Virus record (IMG/VR): IMGVR_UViG_3300019373_000007
Span: 32,001 to 96,000 of that record
Length of the DNA: 64,000 nucleotides
Reading direction: 5' to 3' (one strand)
From: a virus
Lineage: Duplodnaviria > Caudoviricetes
The notes beneath the pieces are model-generated. The model worked only from the letters and a program-made list of their open reading frames with translations. It was not told the origin of the DNA and ran no database searches. A program made the position numbers and the translations under genes. This document shows, piece by piece, positions 15,114 to 30,836 of this stretch (its first letter is position 1; the number at the start of each line of letters is the position of its first letter).

Positions 15114-15200
15114 GAATCCATAGCTCAAGCAGAGCAGCCGAGGTCTTTTTCTAGTTCCTCAACTCCCGGCAAGACGGAGGTTCAAGTCCTCCTGGATTCA
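15114..15200 (+). tRNA. tRNA-like gene with enlarged anticodon arm; identity not assignable
   Basis: acceptor GAATCCA/TGGATTC, D arm GCTC/GAGC, T arm GGAGG-TTCAAGT-CCTCC; 26 nt between GCCG and CGGC. Confidence 0.6.
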
Positions 15201-17299: not shown

Positions 17300-17470
17300 T
17301 TGACAAACTCAGGTTTCTGTCATACGATATAGATGTGAAGAAATCCCAAATCAACTATAACTGAATGAAATGGGTCGCAACTCCTTATGGAGTCTGACTA
17401 TAGATCAAAGCGCTGCAGTTGATTTAGGATTTCTTCACAACTTTTCTTAGATCAAGCGGCGCTTTTCTAT
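17300..17470 (+). promoter_or_regulatory. sigmaA promoter plus structured leader with alternative hairpins
   Basis: TTGACA-17-TACGAT; 17334-17356 pairs with 17417-17439; 17407-17429 pairs with 17445-17465, followed by a U-rich tract. Confidence 0.7.
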
Positions 17471-17484
17471 TTGGAGAAACAGTA

Positions 17485-18141
17485 ATGAAAAGATACGTCA
17501 AATCGACAAATAGGACAATATCGCTAGCTGATATATTATCAAAGATCGATTACTTTGTATTAGTTGATAGTTGTGATAACTTGAACTTGTCTGTTATAAA
17601 CGCACCAGATGAAGTTGATGATGATTCGGAATACTATGCTACTCTTCCTGACAGCCGCCTTGCTGAGCTCAGTGATAATGAGCTCCATTCAATCAATGAC
17701 CCTGAGATACTTGATCGTCTTGTACACTTGTGCAAGGAGCGACTTTCGTCTGATCAGCTTGCGATCTATAGGGAAGAAGCTAAAAAGAAAGTTCCACTAG
17801 ACGATGCAGCTAAAGTTGATCTGCTTCGCATGTTTAGTCAATGCAACAAAGTTTTCATAGAAAATCGTCGTAAAAATAATGATTTTAGGGCTACTTATGA
17901 ACTGACTGATGACGACATATTGGCTATCTTACATAATCTGAAGAAAAGCGACTTCGATTCCAGAACAAAAAGCATCAACTACGGGCACTTAGGTAATAAC
18001 TTAGTAATCATGCATCCGAACATTCTTATCCCACAGAAGGACATCATAGTAGGAGCTAACTTGTATATCAAAATTGATATTGATGAATCTACACATTCCG
18101 GTGTAGCGTTCATCTCAATACACCCTAGACAATTCGACTAG
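17485..18141 (+). CDS. MKR-leader protein with C-terminal MqsR-like (RelE-fold) toxin domain
   Basis: MKRYVKST; RRKNNDF..LTDDDILAILHNL...DF...LYIKIDI...VAFISIH resembles MqsR-family toxins. Confidence 0.6.
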   Translation: MKRYVKSTNRTISLADILSKIDYFVLVDSCDNLNLSVINAPDEVDDDSEYYATLPDSRLAELSDNELHSINDPEILDRLVHLCKERLSSDQLAIYREEAKKKVPLDDAAKVDLLRMFSQCNKVFIENRRKNNDFRATYELTDDDILAILHNLKKSDFDSRTKSINYGHLGNNLVIMHPNILIPQKDIIVGANLYIKIDIDESTHSGVAFISIHPRQFD

Positions 18142-18208
18142 ACGTTACAACCTAAAATAACAACAGAAGAAGACTCATGCAGATGAAATGCCAGAATGAA
18201 GTCTTCAC

Positions 18209-18268
18209 ACCGCAGTTCGTATTTTACAAGCCTTCACGAAATCCTGCGGTATATAAATCAAACACTAT
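18209..18268 (+). promoter_or_regulatory. preQ1-I-like riboswitch aptamer, copy 1
   Basis: stem ACCGCAG/CTGCGGT, loop TTCG...ATC, A-rich tail ending ACTA; upstream of queF. Confidence 0.6.
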
Positions 18269-18305
18269 TGATCTTAAGGCCTTCATATGTAACAAAATCG
18301 AGTAA

Positions 18306-18360
18306 GATCTTGCTAGTGTGAAGGGACGCACAGTTTCTAAGCATTAGCAAGGTCTTTTTA
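18306..18360 (+). terminator. terminator-like hairpin in queF leader
   Basis: AGATCTTGCTAGTG ... CATTAGCAAGGTCT followed by TTTT. Confidence 0.5.
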
Positions 18361-18374
18361 TATTGCGGTAATTC

Positions 18375-18430
18375 CCGGTGTTCGTATTCATTCCTTGACG
18401 AAATCCACCGGCTTTACAAAATAAAACTAT
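18375..18430 (+). promoter_or_regulatory. preQ1-I-like riboswitch aptamer, copy 2
   Basis: stem CCGGTG/CACCGG, loop TTCG...ATC, tail AAAATAAAACTA just before the queF RBS. Confidence 0.65.
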
Positions 18431-18451
18431 ATTTCAAGGAGGTTCACAAAC

Positions 18452-18961
18452 ATGAGTGAACAAAGAGAACAGGATTTATCCGAAGTAACATTATTAGGTA
18501 ATCAGAACACTAAGTACAAGTATGATTACGACCCATCTATCTTAGAGAAATTCGAGCGCAAGTTTGATGGGTCTGTTAAGGATGAGCAGATTGTCAGCTT
18601 GGATTGCTTTGAGTTTGCATCTAGATGTCCGAAGACCGGGCAGCCGGATTTCGCAACCATCCATATTTCTTACATTCCGAATAAATATATGGTAGAATCT
18701 AAGTCATTGAAGCTCTATCTCTTTAGTTTCCAACAGCATGGAGACTTTCATGAATCTTGCGTTCATATGATCATGCAGGATTTAATAGATCTGCTGGATC
18801 CATGCTATCTGGAAGTTTATGGTGACTTCAATAGCCGCGGCGGTATCTCAATCTTGCCATTCAGTGTATACGCTGATGAGGATCACATGGACATCAAGAA
18901 TGCTCGTCAGCTTACTATGATGCAGTATAGTGTAGAGCATAGACCGAGAACAGGCAGATAA
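18452..18961 (+). CDS. queF: preQ0 reductase (NADPH-dependent 7-cyano-7-deazaguanine reductase)
   Basis: [10 protein letters not shown], QueF motif [17 protein letters not shown]. Confidence 0.95.
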
Positions 18962-18976
18962 TGAGGAAAGCTTCGC

Positions 18977-19030
18977 ATGCAAGAAGAATGGGGATCCGTT
19001 GTCGGATATGATGGAATGTACGAGAACTGA
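18977..19030 (+). pseudogene. NUMOD4 endonuclease N-terminal remnant
   Basis: MQEEWGSVVGYDGMYEN* matches the NUMOD4 start pattern EEW..I.GY.G.YE. Confidence 0.5.
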
Positions 19031-19062
19031 GATATCGTTATAGTATTCAAGGAGGACTAATC

Positions 19063-19560
19063 ATGAAAATTTATGTAAGAGCAATGTCCTTGCCGAAAGC
19101 AGAAGCAATCAAGCGTGCGGGATACTATGCTGACGATATAATGGAGCATGTGATCAAGATAGTTGTTTATCATGACATTCGACATAAACAGATAGATCAC
19201 TGGATCGGAGAAATTTCAGGATGGCTGAAGTTTGTTGATGGATTGACTGTGAAGCCGTCTAATAGGCATCTCAAGCCTGCGATGATTCGTGATACTACTT
19301 TCGGTCCTATGGGAGATCACTTACAAGACTATGTAGGTTCGTTAGAGATGTTCCAAACAGCTAATAAGCGCGGGAAGTTCAACTACGAAGATAAGGAATC
19401 TTACCCATACAGAGAACCTGACGCACAGACCGCAAGCGATCTCATGAACATATGTTCTCATCTGATTGGAGTAGCCATTCCGATGCTCTGCGAAAAGAAA
19501 GACTACACAAGAGAAGATTATGTGCAAGTACTACAAGATGTATTCAGAGCATACATCTAA
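19063..19560 (+). CDS. MKR-type leader protein, DUF29-like
   Basis: MKIYVRA then MSL...IMEHVIKIVVY....HWIGEI. Confidence 0.55.
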   Translation: MKIYVRAMSLPKAEAIKRAGYYADDIMEHVIKIVVYHDIRHKQIDHWIGEISGWLKFVDGLTVKPSNRHLKPAMIRDTTFGPMGDHLQDYVGSLEMFQTANKRGKFNYEDKESYPYREPDAQTASDLMNICSHLIGVAIPMLCEKKDYTREDYVQVLQDVFRAYI

Positions 19561-19648
19561 TAACATTTGACACTACGATAGAATTAGAAACATGACTACA
19601 AGCCTGTTTCTATGCAGGCTTGTTTTATTTGTAAAGGAGGAAAATGCC

Positions 19649-20413
19649 ATGAAAAAGGCATTGATTTTAAATTCAGGCGGCATGGATTCTACAACTTTAG
19701 TAGGCATGGCTGTAGATAAGTACGGAGCAGAAAATATCATCACCGCCTCACTGTATTACGGACAGAAGCATGATAAGGAATTGAAGTGTGCACAGGCAGT
19801 AGCTGAGTACTACGGAGTTCGTCACATTGAAGAAGATATTTCATCTGTTATGAAGTATGCAGGAGAGGTTTGCTCACTTGTAAAGGGGTCGAAGGATGAG
19901 ATCATCGACAAGAGCTACGCAGACCAGATTGCAGAGAATGGAGAAGGCCGAGTAAGCACATATGTTCCATTCCGTAACGGGTTGTTCTTATCTATTGCAG
20001 CTGCTTATGCAGATAGCTTGTTCCCAGGACAGGAATGTGAAATCTGGTATGGAGCTCATGCAGATGATGCTGCAGGCCAGGCTTATGCAGATTGCTCTGA
20101 GGAATTCGCCTCAGCTATGGATCAGGCTATCAATATCGGGACATATGGAAACATTCATGTAGTGAGACCTCTCATCAGCATGAATAAGTCCGAAGTATGT
20201 GCCGAAGGCATCAAGTTAGGCGTTCCATATGAACTTACATGGAGCTGCTATCGCGGAGGAGACAAAGCGTGCGGAACGCGATGTGCAACTTGTTTAGACA
20301 GAATTGAAGCATTTCGAGCTAACGGTGTAATTGATCCTATTGAATACGATGCTGAAATAGATTGGTCCGGATGTAAGGAGATAAATTATAGGAAAGGAAT
20401 TTATCATGATTAA
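19649..20413 (+). CDS. queC: 7-cyano-7-deazaguanine synthase
   Basis: SGGMDS, YGQKH, YVPFRN, YADC, TWSCY..ACG..CATC..R. Confidence 0.95.
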   Translation: MKKALILNSGGMDSTTLVGMAVDKYGAENIITASLYYGQKHDKELKCAQAVAEYYGVRHIEEDISSVMKYAGEVCSLVKGSKDEIIDKSYADQIAENGEGRVSTYVPFRNGLFLSIAAAYADSLFPGQECEIWYGAHADDAAGQAYADCSEEFASAMDQAINIGTYGNIHVVRPLISMNKSEVCAEGIKLGVPYELTWSCYRGGDKACGTRCATCLDRIEAFRANGVIDPIEYDAEIDWSGCKEINYRKGIYHD

Positions 20414-21545: not shown

Positions 21546-21983
21546 ATGTATACAGTGCAAACACGCGTCACATTTGAAGCAGCGCACCGCCTGTATGACG
21601 TAGATACGTATTCAAAAGAGTGCTCTGACTCTGTTCACGGGCATTCTTACGCAGTTACCATCGTTGTGGGTCGTGAGGATCTCAACGATGCAGGAATGGT
21701 GATTGACTTCAAGTTACTGAAGAAGGTAATCAAAGAAGTGATTGAAGACCAGTACGATCATTCACTCATCTTGCGAACATGCGATCCGCTACTAGCTGCA
21801 TTTGCTAAGTTAGCTCCAGAGCAGAAGATGAATGTTACTACTGAAAGCCCAACAGCAGAGTGGATGGCTGAGTCATTTGCAAGCTTATTGAGCTGTCGAT
21901 TCGCTTTGGAGGATGACGAGTTGCGTGTGCAGTCAGTTTCCGTTCAGGAAACGGAGAACAACATCGCCACATGGCGAGCATAA
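21546..21983 (+). CDS. queD: 6-carboxytetrahydropterin synthase
   Basis: FEAAHRL..C..HGHSY..GMVIDF..DH..PTAE..VQET. Confidence 0.95.
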   Translation: MYTVQTRVTFEAAHRLYDVDTYSKECSDSVHGHSYAVTIVVGREDLNDAGMVIDFKLLKKVIKEVIEDQYDHSLILRTCDPLLAAFAKLAPEQKMNVTTESPTAEWMAESFASLLSCRFALEDDELRVQSVSVQETENNIATWRA

Positions 21984-22001
21984 TTGAAAGGTGTATGTAG
22001 T

Positions 22002-22475
22002 ATGGTAAGCAAGAATGAAATCATGAAATTAGGTGTAGATCGCGCATTCGAGACGATGTCTCAGGGAATCGGAGGGCCATTCGGTGCAGTCATTGTGAAG
22101 GACGGAGAGGTCATCTCTGTAGCTTCTAATTCTGTGCTAGGTGATCATGACCCGACAGCTCACGCAGAGGTCAACGCTATTAGAGAAGCATGCAAGAAAT
22201 TAGGTACACATGACCTGACAGGATGTGAGATCTTTGCCTCAGGAGCCCCGTGTCCGATGTGTCAATCAGCCATCATCTGGGCAAACATCAAAAAGGTGTA
22301 TACTTCCGGAACAGTAACAGACGCTGCTGCTATCGGGTTCCGAGATGATTACATCTACAAGTTCATTGAAGGAGGATGCTTAGATTCTTCTGTATTAGAG
22401 ACGGAGCAGCTGGATCGGACACCTGCAGTGGAGTTATACACTGCTTATCATGAAATGAATAAAGAAATGTATTAA
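22002..22475 (+). CDS. nucleoside/guanine deaminase (CDA fold, GuaD-like)
   Basis: GGPFGAVIV, DPTAHAEVNAIR, PCPMC, IGFRDD. Confidence 0.9.
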   Translation: MVSKNEIMKLGVDRAFETMSQGIGGPFGAVIVKDGEVISVASNSVLGDHDPTAHAEVNAIREACKKLGTHDLTGCEIFASGAPCPMCQSAIIWANIKKVYTSGTVTDAAAIGFRDDYIYKFIEGGCLDSSVLETEQLDRTPAVELYTAYHEMNKEMY

Positions 22476-22495: not shown

Positions 22496-22879
22496 ATGAA
22501 AGAATATGTTACGTGGGATGAAGTCAGAGATTTCATCTACGGAAAAGTAGCTCCGATGCATCTAGACGAGGCATTTACTGGAGTTTACGGCTTGCCTAGA
22601 GGAGGTTTGTGCTTAGCAGTAATGATATCTCATGCGCTTAACATTCCGATGCTAGCTGCACCAGCTCCGGGATGCTTGATTGTAGACGACATATGTGATT
22701 CCGGAGAATCTCTTGTGCACTATTACAAGAATTCTTCAGGTGAGCGTCAGAATTACCGTATCGCTACTCTTTACTACAAGGAGAACGCGCTTGGAGTAGT
22801 CCCTGACCTGTATGATTTCGTCAAACGTGATAACTGGGTTGTTTTTCCGTGGGAATGCGATCCAATTTCACTAATTTAA
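22496..22879 (+). CDS. type I purine phosphoribosyltransferase (Gpt-like)
   Basis: GLPRGGL, LIVDDICDSGES PRPP loop, WVVFPWE. Confidence 0.9.
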   Translation: MKEYVTWDEVRDFIYGKVAPMHLDEAFTGVYGLPRGGLCLAVMISHALNIPMLAAPAPGCLIVDDICDSGESLVHYYKNSSGERQNYRIATLYYKENALGVVPDLYDFVKRDNWVVFPWECDPISLI

Positions 22880-22889
22880 GGAGGATTCT

Positions 22890-23558
22890 ATGAAAATCAA
22901 CGAGATTTTTTGCTCGCTCAACGGAGAAAGCGCCAGAACAGGGAAGAGAACCGTCTTCGTTCGTACATTCGGATGTAATCTGCGCTGTAGCTACTGTGAT
23001 ACAATGTATGCAGTTGAGGGCAACGACTATACTGACATGACTATCGAGGAGATCAAGGAGAAAGTCGACAGTTTTCACTGTAATCGTGTTACCCTCACAG
23101 GAGGAGAGCCTATGATCCAGAAGGATATGATGGATCTCATCTACCTACTCGACGGGGATTGCTGCAGGCTCTACGACATAGAGATAGAAACTAACGGCGC
23201 AGTTGATTTGACTGAGCTTGTTAAAGCTAGAAGGGATAGGGAGATCAGCGATTCACTCCTCATCACTATGGACTGGAAATGCCCTACAAGCGGAATGTTA
23301 GATGAGATGGTTGAGAATAACTTGTCTCTGCTATCTGACACAGACGTAGTGAAATATGTTGTTGGATCCATAGCTGACTTAGACGAAGCAATGCGAGTGC
23401 ATTCACTTACTCGAGCTCAACTCTACTTGAGCCCTGTATTCGGCAAGATTGAGCCAAAAGAAATCGCAGAGTACTTAGTAAAGGGTGAAATCAACGACGT
23501 TACACTACAAATCCAGCAGCATAAGGTGATTTATCCGCCAGACATGAGAGGGGTATAA
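22890..23558 (+). CDS. queE: 7-carboxy-7-deazaguanine synthase (radical SAM)
   Basis: [29 protein letters not shown]. Confidence 0.95.
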
Positions 23559-23563
23559 GAACT

Positions 23564-24148
23564 ATGGGATACAAGAAAATAGATACAGATAAGATTGAAC
23601 AGTTGACACGCGAATTCCTGATTGCGTTAGGGGATGACCCGGATAGAGAAGGATTGAAGAAAACTCCTCACCGCGTTGCGAAGATGTGCAATGAGATCTT
23701 TGAGGGAATGACTTATACAAACGCAGAAATTGGCACTATGTTCAATACTTGCTTCGAAGATGTAGAGACTGGCGACCTAGTAGTAGAGAGCAACATTCCG
23801 ATACATTCATTTTGTGAACATCATCTCATGCTCATGTACGATATGTCTGTAGCTATCGGATACCTGCCTAAGGGACGTGTAATCGGTCTCAGCAAGCTAG
23901 CTAGGATTGCTGATATGGTAGGCAAGCGCCTTCAACTACAGGAACGCATTGGATCCGACATTGCTGATATCTTACAAGACGTCCTAGGCACTGATGACAT
24001 CATTGTAGTTATCGAAGGCAAACATGGATGCATGACAGCACGTGGAATCAAAGCTAGAGAAGCAGTTACTAGAACAGCTACTTTGCGTGGCAAGTTCAAG
24101 TATGATTCTGACCTTCGTTCTGAATTCTACTCACTGATTGAGAATTAG
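23564..24148 (+). CDS. folE: GTP cyclohydrolase I
   Basis: [36 protein letters not shown]. Confidence 0.95.
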
Positions 24149-26101: not shown

Positions 26102-26186
26102 AACAACTAGAAGAGATCGCAAACAGCGGTCTCATTACTATGTTCAAATCGTTATGTGATCATTCAGTTGTTGGGGAAGTAAACAA

Positions 26187-26240
26187 CCGCAGTTCGGTAA
26201 CCAACCCATTCCTGCGGATTATAAATCAAATACCAAAAGG
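26187..26240 (+). promoter_or_regulatory. preQ1-I-like riboswitch aptamer, copy 3
   Basis: CCGCAG-TTCG...TTC-CTGCGG, then A-rich tail running into AAGGAGG RBS of yhhQ. Confidence 0.65.
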
Positions 26241-26253
26241 AGGAAATCTAGAG

Positions 26254-26976
26254 ATGATTTCAAAGACCAAGAGTCTTGTAGCGGACTATAAACTGCTGCT
26301 TGATAGCGTTCCAGCGCTGGTTACTACTATTTTTTGTATTGGCTCATGCTGGATGAATATTGCAGCCGGCAAAGTTATATTCAATGCATTCAACGTTGCA
26401 ATTACTGGGGGATTTTTAGCCTCTTTCTTGCCGTTCTTGTGCTTAGACATGGTGTCAAAGCGATTCGGTGCACGAGCTGCTATTCTGCTAAACTTGTTAT
26501 CTGCTGCATGTAATACAGTATTCGTTTTAGGCCTTAGCCTTGTTGCAGCTATTCCTACCGAACAAGATTACACTTCGTTCAATACTGTTTTAGGCGGCGT
26601 TTGGTTCATTACATTGTCTAGCATTGTAGCATTTGTTCTTTCCGGTGTAGCTAATTCTCTTCTTAACTCAGCGATCGGAAAGCTCTTTAACAATAAAACA
26701 AGTGCCATTGAATTTGCTACTCGAAGTTTTGTTTCTACATTCGTAGGACAAGCATTGGATAATTTCATCTTCATTGCAGGTGTATATGTTATCTTCGCTC
26801 CTATCTTCTGGGGAATGGATCCATTGCCAATCAAGACTTGCTTAGGAACTGCTATTGTCGGCGGATTCTTCGAACTGCTTTGCGAAGTTGTCACCGCTCC
26901 GATTGGTTATCGAGTAGTTAAGAATTGGGAACGGGATGGAATAGGAAGAGATTACATAGAGAAGCATAAAGCATAG
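26254..26976 (+). CDS. yhhQ: queuosine-precursor transporter (YhhQ/VUT family)
   Basis: multi-TM; NIAAGK, FLCLD...FG, S..AF, RSFVSTFVGQALDNFIF. Confidence 0.85.
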   Translation: MISKTKSLVADYKLLLDSVPALVTTIFCIGSCWMNIAAGKVIFNAFNVAITGGFLASFLPFLCLDMVSKRFGARAAILLNLLSAACNTVFVLGLSLVAAIPTEQDYTSFNTVLGGVWFITLSSIVAFVLSGVANSLLNSAIGKLFNNKTSAIEFATRSFVSTFVGQALDNFIFIAGVYVIFAPIFWGMDPLPIKTCLGTAIVGGFFELLCEVVTAPIGYRVVKNWERDGIGRDYIEKHKA

Positions 26977-27299: not shown

Positions 27300-28696
27300 A
27301 TGAAATTACATCAGAAAACCAAGAAACTTTAGTTTCTTGGATGAATGATGCAGATTTAAGAAAGGAGGTGAAATAGAAAGATGGCTACATACTGTGTACA
27401 AAGCAATGTGATTCGAGGTCTTACAAAAGAACAATACTCCCTGCTTCGAGAAATGTGTCAATATTCAAACAACTTGTATAATGTTGCTCTCTATAATATT
27501 CGACAACATTACTTTAACACAAAGCAGTTTTTGACCTATGAAAGTAATTATCACGAATGTAAGACTAATGAAAACTATGCTTTGTTGCAGGCAGGAGTAT
27601 CTCAACAGATAATGAAAGTTGTAGACAGAAGTTTCAAATCTTTCTTTAATCTGATTAAGAAGTGCAAACTCGGAGATTATAGATACCACGATGTCAACAT
27701 TCCGCATTATCGAAAGAAAGGTGGATTGTTTGGACTAATTCTTTCTACTAATTCAATTGCTATCCGCAACGGCAAGTTTATGATTCCAATGAGCCGTACT
27801 TTTCGTGCTTTACACCCTGATATCAAAGACTTTGAAGTTACGTTTCCAGGACGATTAAAGAACAAGACTATTAAAGAAGTTAGGATTCTTCCGTACAACG
27901 ACGGAAGGTACTTTAAGATTCAATATGTGTATGAAGTAGAACAGGAATCTACAAATCTTGATAGAAATAACATGCTATCAATAGACCTCGGCATAGATAA
28001 TTTAGCAACTTGTGTTTCAACTATCGGGACACCGTTCATAATAGACGGACGTAAACTTAAATCAATCAACCACCGATGGAATAAAGAAATCGCAAGACTT
28101 CGTTCAATATCTATGAAACAAGGTCTTAAGACTACTGCTTGTATTCAAAGAATTACAACAAAAAGAAATAATCAAGTCAACGACTCTATCAAGAAGTCAG
28201 CAAGATATGTCGTTAACTATTGCATCAATAACAACATTGGAACTTTGATTGTTGGATACAATGCAGATTTCAAGAGGAACTCCAATCTTGGTAAAACAAA
28301 TAATCAGAATTTTGTTCAGATACCTTTAGGTGATTTGCGCCAACAGTTAGAGTTCTTGTGCTGGAAATATTCTGTTGAGTACATTGAACAAGAAGAAGCA
28401 TACACATCAAAAAGCAGTTTTCTTGACAACGATGAACTTCCCGAATACAAAGCGGAACAGCCTTACCAAGGGACATTCAGCGGAAAGCGCATAAAGAGAG
28501 GACTATATCAATCAAAAAATGGCACAATCCTCAATGCAGATGTAAATGGTGCTGCAAACATACTAAGAAAATGTAAGCAGAATGTCGATTTCGACAAACT
28601 GTGTAAGGGACTTTTGGCGAGTCCAGTAAGAATAAGGATATCTTAGATATCAAACTTCTTACGAATCCCATTGGCTTTAGCCGATGGGTACGTCAA
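27300..28696 (+). mobile_element. IS200/IS605-family (IS1341-type, tnpB-only) element
   Basis: left hairpin CCAAGAAACTTTAGTTTCTTGG; right hairpin CCCATTGGCTTTAGCCGATGGG ending ..TCAA; left boundary approximate. Confidence 0.8.
27381..28646 (+). CDS. tnpB: RNA-guided endonuclease TnpB
   Basis: NLYNVALY, SIDLGIDNLA (RuvC-I), QEEAYTSK, NADVNGAANI (RuvC-III). Confidence 0.92.
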   Translation: MATYCVQSNVIRGLTKEQYSLLREMCQYSNNLYNVALYNIRQHYFNTKQFLTYESNYHECKTNENYALLQAGVSQQIMKVVDRSFKSFFNLIKKCKLGDYRYHDVNIPHYRKKGGLFGLILSTNSIAIRNGKFMIPMSRTFRALHPDIKDFEVTFPGRLKNKTIKEVRILPYNDGRYFKIQYVYEVEQESTNLDRNNMLSIDLGIDNLATCVSTIGTPFIIDGRKLKSINHRWNKEIARLRSISMKQGLKTTACIQRITTKRNNQVNDSIKKSARYVVNYCINNNIGTLIVGYNADFKRNSNLGKTNNQNFVQIPLGDLRQQLEFLCWKYSVEYIEQEEAYTSKSSFLDNDELPEYKAEQPYQGTFSGKRIKRGLYQSKNGTILNADVNGAANILRKCKQNVDFDKLCKGLLASPVRIRIS

Positions 28697-29330: not shown

Positions 29331-30836
29331 ATGTCATTAGAATTAGAGAATTTATCTGCTCTTTCCATTGGGCAGCTAGTTAATTTTAAGGAAGTAAAGC
29401 CTACAGAGGTAGTAGACTACTTTGCGGATCGCATCGAAAAGAGAAATCCTTCTATCAACGCATTTGTTTACACTAAGATAGACGAAGCGATGGAAGTAGC
29501 TAAGGAGCAAGAGAAGAAAATCATGTCCGGAATGTCTCCGGGAGTATTCGCTGGAGTTCCGGTTTGCTTGAAGGACTTTTTGCCTTCTAAGGAGGGATGG
29601 ACAAACAGTCATGGCGGTGTGCGAGCACTTATCCAGAGAGACCCAGAGGACTCCGAATTCACTAAGGCAGCAGAAGCAATGGGTGCTATTCCTATTGGAA
29701 AGGCCAACGCACCTGCTTTCGCTTTCAGAGGAATCACAGACAATCAGATGTATGGTCCTACTAGCACACCATTCAAGCCAGGATACAATTCGGGTGGATC
29801 GTCAGGAGGAACTGCTGCTGCAGTCGGCGACGGATTGGTTCCGTTAGGAGAAGGGTCAGACGGAGGCGGATCCATTAGAATACCATCCGCATGGTGCGGT
29901 TGCTTTGGATTCAAGCCGTCTGTCGGAGCTGTTCCTAGCGTATGCAGACCTGATGCTTGGACTGCAACACATCCATTCTGCTTCAATGGTGCAATTACGC
30001 GTACGGTAGAAGACAGTTTAGCTATATTCCGGATGATGTGTCACTACGACCTACATGATCCATTTAGTGTGCCTAGCTCAGTTATCTTCAACAAGAATAG
30101 TTCCTTTGTAGCTAACCAGACAATCCGCATTGGCCTTGTCAGAGACTTCGGAGTATTTCCAGTAGAAGATGAACTCTGGGAAGTAATCAAGAGAGCTGCT
30201 AAGATGGCTGAATCTTCTTTATCTGCTAACATCATTGTAGAAGAAGTGGATCCAGATAGCTTGTCACTTGCTCCATTCACCGCAGAGGACTTAGCTGAGA
30301 TGTGGTGCAGGATGATCTCTATCGATACATCCATTGACATGAACCTGTGGGCAAGATCCGGTAAGGTAGATATGCGTGACCCTGCTCTAGAGTATCAGCT
30401 CACTCCTGAATTCATTCATTGGGATAAGGTTGCGTCTACTCAGACAGGAATCATGGACTATCGCACATTCAACGAAATGCGAACTGCTGTCCTTGATATG
30501 CACATTGACTTATTCAGGAAGTACGATTTCATCATCAGCCCAGTTACATGTTGCAACCCTGTCCCTAATGATACATCTGAGAAGGTAACAGCAGGTCCTG
30601 CTACAATCAACGGACGGAAAGTAGATCAAGCAATCGGCTTCTGCGAAACATTCTTACAGAATTTCATCGGATATCCTGCAGCTTCTATCCCAGCAGGATT
30701 GTCTGCCGACGGCTTGCCTATCGGAATGCAGATTGTAGGAAAGAAGTATTCAGACCACAAGCTGTTCCAGCTGTCTCGAATCTACGAGAACGTCAACCCA
30801 TGGAGCTACTCTATCCCATTCAATAGAGCAATCTAG
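29331..30836 (+). CDS. amidase, amidase-signature (GatA-like) family
   Basis: GVPVCLKD, GGSSGG, GSDGGGSIRIPSAWCG, GLPIGMQIVG. Confidence 0.93.
   Translation: MSLELENLSALSIGQLVNFKEVKPTEVVDYFADRIEKRNPSINAFVYTKIDEAMEVAKEQEKKIMSGMSPGVFAGVPVCLKDFLPSKEGWTNSHGGVRALIQRDPEDSEFTKAAEAMGAIPIGKANAPAFAFRGITDNQMYGPTSTPFKPGYNSGGSSGGTAAAVGDGLVPLGEGSDGGGSIRIPSAWCGCFGFKPSVGAVPSVCRPDAWTATHPFCFNGAITRTVEDSLAIFRMMCHYDLHDPFSVPSSVIFNKNSSFVANQTIRIGLVRDFGVFPVEDELWEVIKRAAKMAESSLSANIIVEEVDPDSLSLAPFTAEDLAEMWCRMISIDTSIDMNLWARSGKVDMRDPALEYQLTPEFIHWDKVASTQTGIMDYRTFNEMRTAVLDMHIDLFRKYDFIISPVTCCNPVPNDTSEKVTAGPATINGRKVDQAIGFCETFLQNFIGYPAASIPAGLSADGLPIGMQIVGKKYSDHKLFQLSRIYENVNPWSYSIPFNRAI

Follow-up and report, generated by a model that had tools for sequence, protein, structure and literature searches.

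Class I preQ1 (7-aminomethyl-7-deazaguanine) riboswitches are described as H-type pseudoknots with a G-C floor on top of the P1 stem (G5-C18), U6, the specificity cytosine C17 and an A-rich L3 tail (PMC11625349, PMC8752633). Type I adds to these U7, U16 directly 5' of the specificity C, and a CUA tail in which the C recognizes a second ligand stacked on the first (PMC11625349, PMC8752633). QueF and the YhhQ-type importer are named as classical targets of preQ1 riboswitches (PMC10622847), and metabolite riboswitches have been called 'a rare feature in phages' (PMC9004378). Here we describe the leader of a phage queF gene in a 64,000-nucleotide stretch of DNA (the window; bases 32001-96000 of the 134.5-kb IMG/VR virus record IMGVR_UViG_3300019373_000007, with an estimated completeness of 89%). 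The leader carries two aptamer-like elements, W1 and W2, and a third one, W3, precedes a transporter gene of the same region. We consider W1, W2 and W3 to be aptamers that sense a ligand and derive from type I preQ1 riboswitches of class I, and W2 to be a translational OFF switch, with a probability of about 0.78. Our literature search found no report of a phage preQ1 riboswitch or of a fourth class I subtype, although long-loop members may stand in the source of the type I-III consensus or in supplementary alignments. It also found nothing linking preQ1 riboswitches with phage 7-deazaguanine genes, the word 'riboswitch' occurring zero times in the two main phage 7-deazaguanine papers.

Anatomy of W1 and W2

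The leader fills a gap of 310 bases between an unnamed open reading frame (ORF) at 17485-18141 and the 169-aa ORF of queF. W1 has a P1 stem of 6 bp (18210-18215/18244-18249), a 28-nt loop (18216-18243) and an A-rich tail terminating in ACUA at 18264-18267 (ACUAU); the same parts are found in W2, namely a P1 stem of 6 bp (18375-18380/18406-18411), a 25-nt loop (18381-18405) and a tail terminating in ACUA at 18426-18429 (ACUAU). Both loops have UUCGUA at the 5' end and AAAUC at the 3' end, and both contain an inner complement UUCGU/ACGAA (18216-18220/18236-18240 in W1, 18381-18385/18398-18402 in W2). The loop word GTTCGTAT..CGAAATCC common to W1 and W2 occurs twice in the window, compared with 0.00 expected occurrences (100 shuffles). 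At two positions the stems of W1 and W2 differ by double changes that keep the pairing (C-G to G-C and A-U to U-A). The computed folding energies of the hairpins are -13.4 kcal/mol for W1 (z -3.5; 2 of 200 shuffles equal it) and -12.3 kcal/mol for W2 (z -2.5; 3 of 200). Between the aptamers lies a long terminator-like hairpin (18304-18356, with U5 at 18355-18359), whose energy was reached by none of 200 shuffles.

The loops of W1 and W2 owe their length to about 13-16 additional nt located between P2 and the specificity C, and this insert holds a CCUU-type stretch. In W2 the duplex predicted for this stretch (18391-18398/18434-18441) covers the ribosome-binding site (RBS) of queF, which lies 6 nt beyond ACUA. 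The GUA that follows UUC is able to pair with the tail UAU as the usual short P2 (GUA 18384-18386 and UAU 18428-18430 in W2). W1, W2 and all seven copies of the subtype to which they belong (subtype a, see below) hold every class I and type I signature base (alignment A6).

An initial annotation, made from the sequence alone, had described two hairpins with UUCG...AUC loops and A-rich ACUA tails, unusually long loops with a TTCGT...ACGAA complement, and a terminator-like hairpin between the two elements. All of these were confirmed, the loops being 25-28 nt long compared with 12 nt and the hairpin being supported by its fold (z -7.0), while the element ends given there (18209, 18268 and 18430) fall within one or two bases of those found by us. 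Its reading of the elements as two variant aptamers also stands; it had missed the anti-Shine-Dalgarno nature of the insert and the third copy at 26187.

A third aptamer upstream of the transporter gene

W3 is located directly upstream of the Vut_1 ORF of the window. Its P1 stem (26187-26192/26212-26217) encloses a 19-nt loop containing UAACCA, and loop GGUA (26196-26199) forms a canonical P2 of four pairs with tail UACC (26231-26234); GGAGG occupies 26239-26243, and the CCUU insert is absent. The tail has AUACC in place of the type I ending. W3 is intermediate between the stretched and the canonical forms. Over the whole 134.5-kb record, the covariance model of subtype a (R2) found exactly three places, W1, W2 and W3. 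W3 would do for the precursor importer gene what W2 does for queF.

Relatives, subtypes and their distribution

Eleven viral-contig loci encoding QueF relatives were compared: 5 of them have an element like W1 and W2 just upstream, and the other 6 have a different leader or none. From a wider protein search, the best 80 of 381 loci were taken. Two subtypes were delimited by simple descriptors and two covariance models, R1 for subtype b and R2 for subtype a. Subtype a comprises 7 copies in 5 records (W1 and W2, a pair of copies in L003, and single copies in L004, L032 and L173). A first pattern scan of viral contigs gave at least 112 stretches, nearly all of them chance, and one new copy (L032). 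A strict subtype-a pattern matched only three viral contigs, all previously found; applied to one genome per species of 185,579 bacterial and archaeal species, it matched six stretches, none with a stem and two of them being a promoter.

Subtype b is commoner than subtype a. Its loops, of 18-22 nt, contain UU(U/A)UGUA, then CCU(U), then GA(A/C)A-N-C, and its tail contains AAA(U/C)AAAAAUAA. The R1 model yielded 30 matches at E<=1 in 82 sources and later 68 matches (41 distinct) in 66 sources. It misses subtype a at E<=1, whereas R2 finds subtype b weakly (13.6-27 bits). A pattern restricted to sequence words gave 59 stretches in viral contigs, 47 of them distinct and 41 of these being real subtype-b copies; in metagenome contigs it gave at least 119 stretches, at least 107 of them distinct, with at least 42 real copies and 65 chance ones among the matches listed. 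The viral and metagenome sets overlap. In two bacterial phyla, with 401 genomes scanned in each, the subtype-b pattern had no match in one phylum and a single, chance match in the other, and R1 had no matches among the candidates scored (a part of all) in 146 Clostridia genomes. The variants were thus found only in phage-type contigs; the bacterial sample is small for subtype b, and absence from bacteria is not established.

The pattern scans used no gene information. Behind the real copies of subtype b, the ORFs listed fall into just two kinds, encoding either QueF-like proteins, called by eye from N-termini resembling that of the window QueF, or a membrane protein of 216-253 aa. Ten sampled downstream ORFs were assigned by Pfam to Vut_1 (nine) and QueF (one). 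The usual layout in the relatives is one switch per gene, the transporter gene being followed by queF.

Covariation of the P1 stem and of the loop-tail helix

In alignment A7, 95.9% of the P1 cells are paired compared with 56.6% after shuffling, and both-side changes are seen in all six pairs, a count that includes four probable false rows; in alignment A8, 98.3% of the cells are paired and the closing G-C is present in 40 of 40 distinct subtype-b rows. Over both alignments, both-side changes occur in 5-6 of the 6 pairs, and the closing G-C is found in all seven subtype-a copies (A6). Two MAFFT alignments (A1 and A3), which split the stem or the loop, were left out of the counts. Model-fitted alignments such as A7 and A8 lean towards the structure, and an independent test was therefore made with the loop and tail words, setting no condition on the flanks. 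In the viral set, 40 copies had 5-6 of 6 flanking pairs and one more had the stem with a one-base register shift, with 17 different stems in total; the remaining 6 of the 47 matches are chance, having 2-3 pairs and no UUU before the word. Of the 65 chance matches among the metagenome matches listed, all but one had 0-4 flanking pairs. The P1 stem is real and covarying.

The loops of all copies contain a CCU(U) stretch. Its complement is AGG(A) of the RBS, or else, as seen in some copies, a sequence preceding a terminator. The five-pair loop-tail helix of subtype b is paired in 87.3% of cells (70.1+-1.5 after shuffling; 0 of 500 shuffles reach the observed value), and its covariation is 0.633, compared with 0.305 for shuffled alignments and 0.004-0.389 for slid registers, much of the signal being a matched shift by which CC lies one base farther from the GA word and GG one base nearer to the AUAA word. 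One subtype-b copy has CUCAU/AUGAG replacing CCUU/AAGG, and four terminator-type copies have AACCU with AGGUU. In subtype a, loop-tail duplexes of 5-8 bp are present in all seven copies. Five of these copies stand before an RBS, and in them the base 3' of CCUU forms G-C (two copies), U-A (two) or A-U (one); it is unpaired by mismatch in W1 and in the W1 counterpart of the closest relative, L003, where GCCUU/AAGGC of W1 corresponds to GUCUU/AAGGC. The inner UUCGU/ACGAA stem is invariant in all seven subtype-a copies. For subtype b, an equivalent was sought and rejected, since the candidates (UGU/ACA or UUUU/GAAA) lie in differing registers and none is consistent.

Relation to bacterial type I aptamers

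UU after the 5' strand of P1 and the specificity C are present in 7 of 7 subtype-a and 41 of 41 subtype-b copies, the C of subtype b being fixed by the search pattern and the UU unconstrained by it. Copies of both subtypes have A-rich, L3-like tails of 11-18 nt, mostly A. The combination of UU, UC and a CUA tail that distinguishes type I is found in W1, W2 and all seven subtype-a copies; in subtype b, UC occurs in only 10 of 41 copies and the tail has AUAA. The AC of type III is found in neither subtype, A before the specificity C being present in 0 of 41 and 0 of 7 copies, respectively. With loops of 25-28 nt, W1 and W2 fall outside the limits of a small aptamer (30-34 nt, a loop of about 7-12 nt, an RF00522 gathering score).

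Of 121 Clostridia genomes examined, 11 contained an Rfam PreQ1 match at E<=0.001 (loci L391-L401). Only 1 of these 11 was above the gathering cut-off of 39 bits, the others scoring 28.5-32.9 bits. Most type I aptamers in the sampled Clostridia escape routine annotation. These genuine aptamers have 12-nt loops, UUCGAAACCAUC or UUCGUAACCAUC, and tails ending in AAAACUA(A)GGAG. The R2 model recovers 4 of the 11 at the very places given by Rfam (12.3-14.2 bits), and in the resulting alignment UUCGUA, AUC, P1 and AAAACUA match up, the bacterial RNAs being shorter by 16-20 bases in the loop and by a few in the tail. Searched with RF00522, the whole record gave only two chance-level matches elsewhere (10.9 and 10.6 bits); the preQ1-II and preQ1-III models had no match at E<=10 in the window slices or at related loci.

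Subtype a can thus be described, as far as its sequence goes, as a type I aptamer with an insertion in L2, and subtype b appears to have drifted further, with an extra U, A for C in the tail, and any base but A at the position preceding the specificity C. Subtype b resembles type III in hiding the whole AAGG, while lacking the AC and the tiny loop of that type. Variant class I preQ1-like aptamers upstream of a phage queF, as had been suggested initially, are supported by the signature bases, the R2 alignment, the covariation and the strict association with QueF and transporter genes, R2 aligning base for base with the bacterial type I aptamers outside the insertion. The suggestion of a new subtype also gained support.

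Proposed mechanism

The anatomy, conservation, covariation and gene association described above are observations. Which ligand is bound, in which direction the switch works and how W1 acts are inferred from the anatomy and from what is known of the class. In W2, preQ1, the product of QueF, would be held between P1 and the short P2, and the A-rich tail would dock on P1. The RBS would then be brought to the L2 insert and pair with it, so that translation of queF is blocked as product feedback. In ligand-free W2, the UUCGU/ACGAA stem would take up the pocket bases, and the undocked tail would leave the RBS free. In W1, the loop would pair with AAGGC just ahead of the U-run hairpin, and the ligand would favour termination. 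In one terminator-type relative (L011), an anti-terminator (-11.6 kcal/mol, z -5.2) arises when the tail strand complementary to the loop pairs with the 5' half of a 13-bp terminator with a U-run, so that the two structures compete; L132, L130 and L173 have the same anti-terminator/terminator design. These relatives offer the best indirect support for the OFF polarity, because the partner of the loop is the anti-terminator strand and a pseudoknot held by the ligand would therefore favour termination. Binding of preQ1 and repression of the downstream gene are most likely, judging from the conserved core and its setting.

Tentatively, and with somewhat less than even confidence, we propose that the variants constitute a fourth, phage-borne subtype of class I, in which the L2 insertion serves as an anti-Shine-Dalgarno or anti-anti-terminator strand, the ligand-bound fold is doubly pseudoknotted with three helices (P1, P2 and the loop-RBS helix), and subtype a binds two stacked preQ1 molecules.

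Several points weigh against the reading of W1, W2 and W3 as preQ1-type aptamers. A search with the Rfam PreQ1 model, proposed initially as a check, found neither W1 nor W2 even at E<=10; at this level no Rfam family matched W1, W2 or W3 (slices of 96-601 bases, the longest being 18000-18600), and the motif was also unmatched at five related loci. An insertion of such size in the loop would cause this miss, and the failure carries little weight, because only one of the 11 genuine Clostridia aptamers clears the 39-bit cut-off. The covariation alignments are model-fitted, many subtype-b columns are fixed by the search pattern, and many copies are close relatives. The energies of own loop-tail pairs do not differ significantly from those of swapped ones (mean -6.70 vs -6.54 kcal/mol; 1710 of 5000 permutations as low), and the loop-tail fit is therefore largely generic, CCUU being able to pair with any RBS as an anti-Shine-Dalgarno sequence. 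The short P2 (GUA/UAU) and the inner UUCGU/ACGAA stem are invariant and show no covariation either way; moreover, P2 and the loop-RBS helix cross each other, and their coexistence is putative. As to W1, two pairings were considered for an anti-terminator: AAGGCCUU at 18276-18283 can form 7 of 8 pairs by eye with the foot of the hairpin (18304-18311), whereas folding of the nascent RNA predicts a helix between 18280-18288 and 18316-18324, which is no better than shuffles (z -1.46). The upstream copy of L003, which matches W1, precedes a promoter-like site and a 124-aa ORF, with no terminator.

Alternative explanations

The same fold could serve another ligand, the aptamer having been retuned to preQ0 (7-cyano-7-deazaguanine), another phage 7-deazaguanine, or guanine. 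The adenine A12 that forms the ceiling of the pocket in the solved type I structure (PMC8752633) is U or C at the aligned position in subtype a. In subtype b, the tail UA follows A rather than C, and the specificity C follows C, G or U but never A. Other riboswitch classes include variant aptamers whose ligand has changed (PMC11625349), and the chemistry of phage QueF is itself described as unsettled (PMC6884629). We nevertheless regard a changed ligand as unlikely: W1 and W2 retain all of the G-C floor, U6, U7, specificity C, A-rich tail and tail C, a switch that turns queF off fits the product preQ1 and not the substrate preQ0, and QueF together with the YhhQ type makes up the classical preQ1 regulon. 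The altered ligand preference considered initially is therefore without support, all ligand-contacting positions being retained. An inverse polarity is likewise improbable. Under it, the inner stem and the loop-RBS pairing would hide the RBS in the ligand-free state, and the ligand, drawing UUCGU into the pocket, would free it. It is true that five bases (18381-18385) are needed both by the inner stem and by the core in its ligand-bound state, and that the inner stem abuts the anti-Shine-Dalgarno stretch without a spacer, as in H-type pseudoknots. However, all characterised preQ1 riboswitches are OFF switches as far as described in PMC11625349, the loop partner in the terminator-type relatives is the anti-terminator strand, so that the ligand favours termination, and subtype b has no consistent inner stem. 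Finally, the leader might sense no metabolite at all, being a conserved element with a protein as its partner or one that keeps the RBS permanently hidden; the generic nature of the CCUU/AAGG pairing and the non-significant comparison of own and swapped pairs speak for it. Yet every base of the preQ1 pocket is kept, in order, and only before genes of QueF and precursor transporters, which would be a remarkable coincidence, and we hold this explanation to be very improbable.

Returning to W1 as a preQ1-type aptamer, it is most likely a transcriptional switch deciding whether RNA polymerase reaches W2 and queF, this being less certain than the role of W2 and based on analogy with the relatives that have a clear anti-terminator/terminator pair. 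Of the initial suggestion of one transcriptional and one translational switch, the translational reading of W2 is kept, and the transcriptional one is plausible, if weakly supported (z -1.46), for W1. W1 could instead be an orphaned copy, left for example when the transporter gene moved, with the hairpin at 18304-18359 being the terminator of the upstream operon and only W2 regulating queF. In the relatives, the usual order is switch-transporter-switch-queF, the switches being 0.8-1.5 kb apart, while in the window the transporter gene, preceded by W3 as a switch of its own, is found 7.7 kb downstream; an ATG-TAA (18287-18292) 7 nt past AAGG of W1 resembles the remnant of a start site; and both the promoter-like site behind the matching L003 copy and the statistical weakness of the W1 anti-terminator would agree with this reading. 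On the other hand, the core of W1 is intact, its L003 counterpart retains the stem, the core words and the loop-tail pairing despite about 40% divergence of the insert, and an aptamer followed directly by a U-run hairpin is the standard transcriptional platform. We consider orphaning the less likely reading and keep W1 as a probable transcriptional switch. The tandem layout may still be a remnant of the one-switch-per-gene order after the transporter gene had moved, and is possibly a local accident, since the relatives mostly carry one switch per gene.

Some further features of the leader were observed. The ATG-TAA, absent from the closest relative, L003, is either a start-stop mini-ORF or what is left of the beginning of a gene since lost. 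A word AAUCG(U)UAUA between the aptamer tail and the terminator hairpin is common to four diverged relatives (L011, 2935-2945; L132; L130; L173), and AAAUCG is also found after W1 (18296-18300) and after its L003 counterpart; this word may be a spacer or a phage promoter element. An inverted repeat GAAGACU/AGUCUUC (7 bp, 24-nt loop; 18169-18206) ends 3 nt upstream of the W1 stem.

Genomic setting

The coordinates of the aptamers, their pairing partners and the genes of the region are given in Table 1. Genes for a DnaB-type helicase and a Nudix hydrolase lie upstream of the queF leader, and the region is a phage replication region carrying the full preQ1 pathway.

Table 1. Features of the queF leader and the 7-deazaguanine gene region (positions in the window).
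Feature	Position	Strand	Evidence
W1 aptamer	18210-18268	+	Sequence; fold; R2 80.4 bits (W1 itself a member of the R2 model)
W1 loop stretch GCCUU, complement of AAGGC 18276-18280	18230-18234	+	5-bp duplex of -6.6 kcal/mol
AAGGCCUU, tail partner of the W1 loop, candidate anti-terminator strand	18276-18283	+	Inference; fold z only -1.46
Terminator-like long hairpin (16 bp, internal loop, 6 bp) then U5	18304-18359	+	Fold -29.6 kcal/mol, z -7.0
W2 aptamer	18375-18430	+	Sequence; fold; R2 81.0 bits (W2 itself a member of the R2 model)
W2 anti-Shine-Dalgarno stretch UUCCUUGA in the enlarged loop	18391-18398	+	8-bp duplex with 18434-18441, -10.0 kcal/mol
queF ribosome-binding site, partner of the W2 loop stretch	18434-18442	+	GGAGG 18438-18442; 9 nt to ATG
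queF, preQ1 synthase, 169 aa	18452-18961	+	Pfam QueF 2e-31; NCBIfam TIGR03139 133.8 bits vs cut-off 86.9
QueC	19592-20413	+	Pfam
HNH endonuclease with NUMOD4 motif, 358 aa	20406-21482	+	Pfam
QueD	21546-21983	+	Pfam
dCMP-type deaminase	21984-22475	+	Pfam
PRT-like protein	22496-22879	+	Pfam
Radical-SAM QueE-like protein	22890-23558	+	Pfam
FolE	23564-24148	+	Pfam
W3, third aptamer	26187-26243	+	Descriptor search; R2 36.7 bits, E 1.6e-5 (match 26185-26243; W3 outside the R2 model)
YhhQ/Vut_1-type queuosine-precursor transporter	26254-26976	+	Pfam Vut_1 3.2e-22; NCBIfam TIGR00697 46.7 bits, just under cut-off 50.95

The HNH endonuclease ORF sits between queC and queD, overlapping the end of queC by 8 bases, and looks like a homing-endonuclease insertion into the pathway operon. 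Directly after the transporter gene there is an IS605 OrfB/TnpB-like ORF (421 aa, 27381-28646; Pfam OrfB_IS605 5e-26) with a Cas12f-like TNB domain. An amidase-family ORF near the deazaguanine cluster (501 aa, 29331-30836; Pfam Amidase 4e-84, NCBIfam matches all far under their cut-offs) could encode a tailoring enzyme for a 7-deazaguanine derivative. At the gathering level of Rfam 15, tRNA was the single match in the whole window; when aligned to the Rfam model, the tRNA gene (15114-15200, 87 nt, 46.4 bits) shows 26 inserted nt in its anticodon/variable region.

A simple terminator scan, whose rule accepts only loops of 3-8 nt, found no terminators and did not list the hairpin between W1 and W2. 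A blastn search of isolate phages with 17400-19600 gave one record, aligned solely within queF. The stretch is present as short identical contigs in two faecal RNA-library runs, which are uninformative on transcription, ends and level.

Use of the base and significance

The initial annotation had assumed that the feedback-regulated product is a DNA-modification base. This use of the base is putative, and no TGT (TGT/DpdA-type) gene was identified by Pfam in the 89%-complete record. Neither a TGT-family nor a QueA gene was found by the Pfam TGT and QueA models in the 134.5 kb, and no DpdA-like protein was found among 22 ORFs compared with PHROGs and NCBIfam, models that distant DpdA forms might escape. 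In phages with QueF, dPreQ1 has been reported, the question whether free or DNA-bound preQ0 is reduced being described as unsettled, and one such QueF-carrying virus lacks a known DpdA (PMC6884629). A switch sensing the free base would argue for the free-base route of phage QueF. If a phage does sense the free base, its QueF would be making free preQ1 and not reducing preQ0 within DNA. Four relatives (L006, L007, L008 and L010) have no leader or switch before queF. The gene that ends just before queF in them (approximately 2600-2995) is presumably queA, which its product resembles in C-terminal sequence. This hints that some phages with QueF relatives feed tRNA queuosine rather than DNA.

Uncultured phages thus carry dozens of distinct stretched class I aptamers, counted in partly overlapping sets, before exactly two kinds of genes, and the catalogue model does not see them, so that Rfam-based surveys undercount the riboswitches of the virome. 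The variants suggest that phages meter the free preQ1 pool during infection. They would also show a route by which a minimal aptamer acquires a separate regulatory strand through insertion in its loop, and offer a natural test case in which full burial of the RBS is added onto a two-ligand type I pocket.

Comparison with known systems

The closest known system is preQ1-I type I (RF00522), represented by the 34-mer of Carnobacterium antarcticum (PMC8752633), with which W1 and W2 share the G-C-closed P1, UUCG(U)A, AUC and the AAAACUA tail. The RBS close behind the tail and the location before queuosine-precursor genes are also alike. However, the loop of type I has 12 nt, compared with 25-28 nt in W1 and W2 and 21-29 nt across subtype a, and the type I RBS is half-buried in P2, whereas here it lies about 6 nt past ACUA and would pair with the anti-Shine-Dalgarno insert of the loop. 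Moreover, the ceiling adenine of type I is replaced here, and the variants are unmatched by Rfam and were found only in phage-type contigs.

Type III, as described for the E. coli 30-mer (PMC10622847), is similar to the variants in having UU after P1, a pyrimidine stretch of the loop that forms Watson-Crick pairs with AAGG, concealment of the whole RBS, and an A-rich tail of variable length. It differs by its loop, described there as the smallest (bases 6-12), and by AC before the 3' strand of P1 (PMC10622847), while the variants have loops of 18-29 nt, and W1 and W2 have U at this position. In addition, the variants possess conserved GUA and GA(A/C)A words beside CCUU.

In preQ1-II riboswitches (RF01054), as is proposed for the variants, a pseudoknot buries the RBS and an extra element is inserted in a loop. 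They differ in having another fold and another pocket, with trans pairing by a cytosine (PMC11625349). Tandem riboswitches are represented by those for glycine and by the thiamine pyrophosphate (TPP) switches of Bacillus anthracis, cited in PMC11625349; they have two like aptamers per leader, as found here. In the phage leader, however, each aptamer has its own apparent expression platform, a terminator-like hairpin after W1 and then the RBS after W2.

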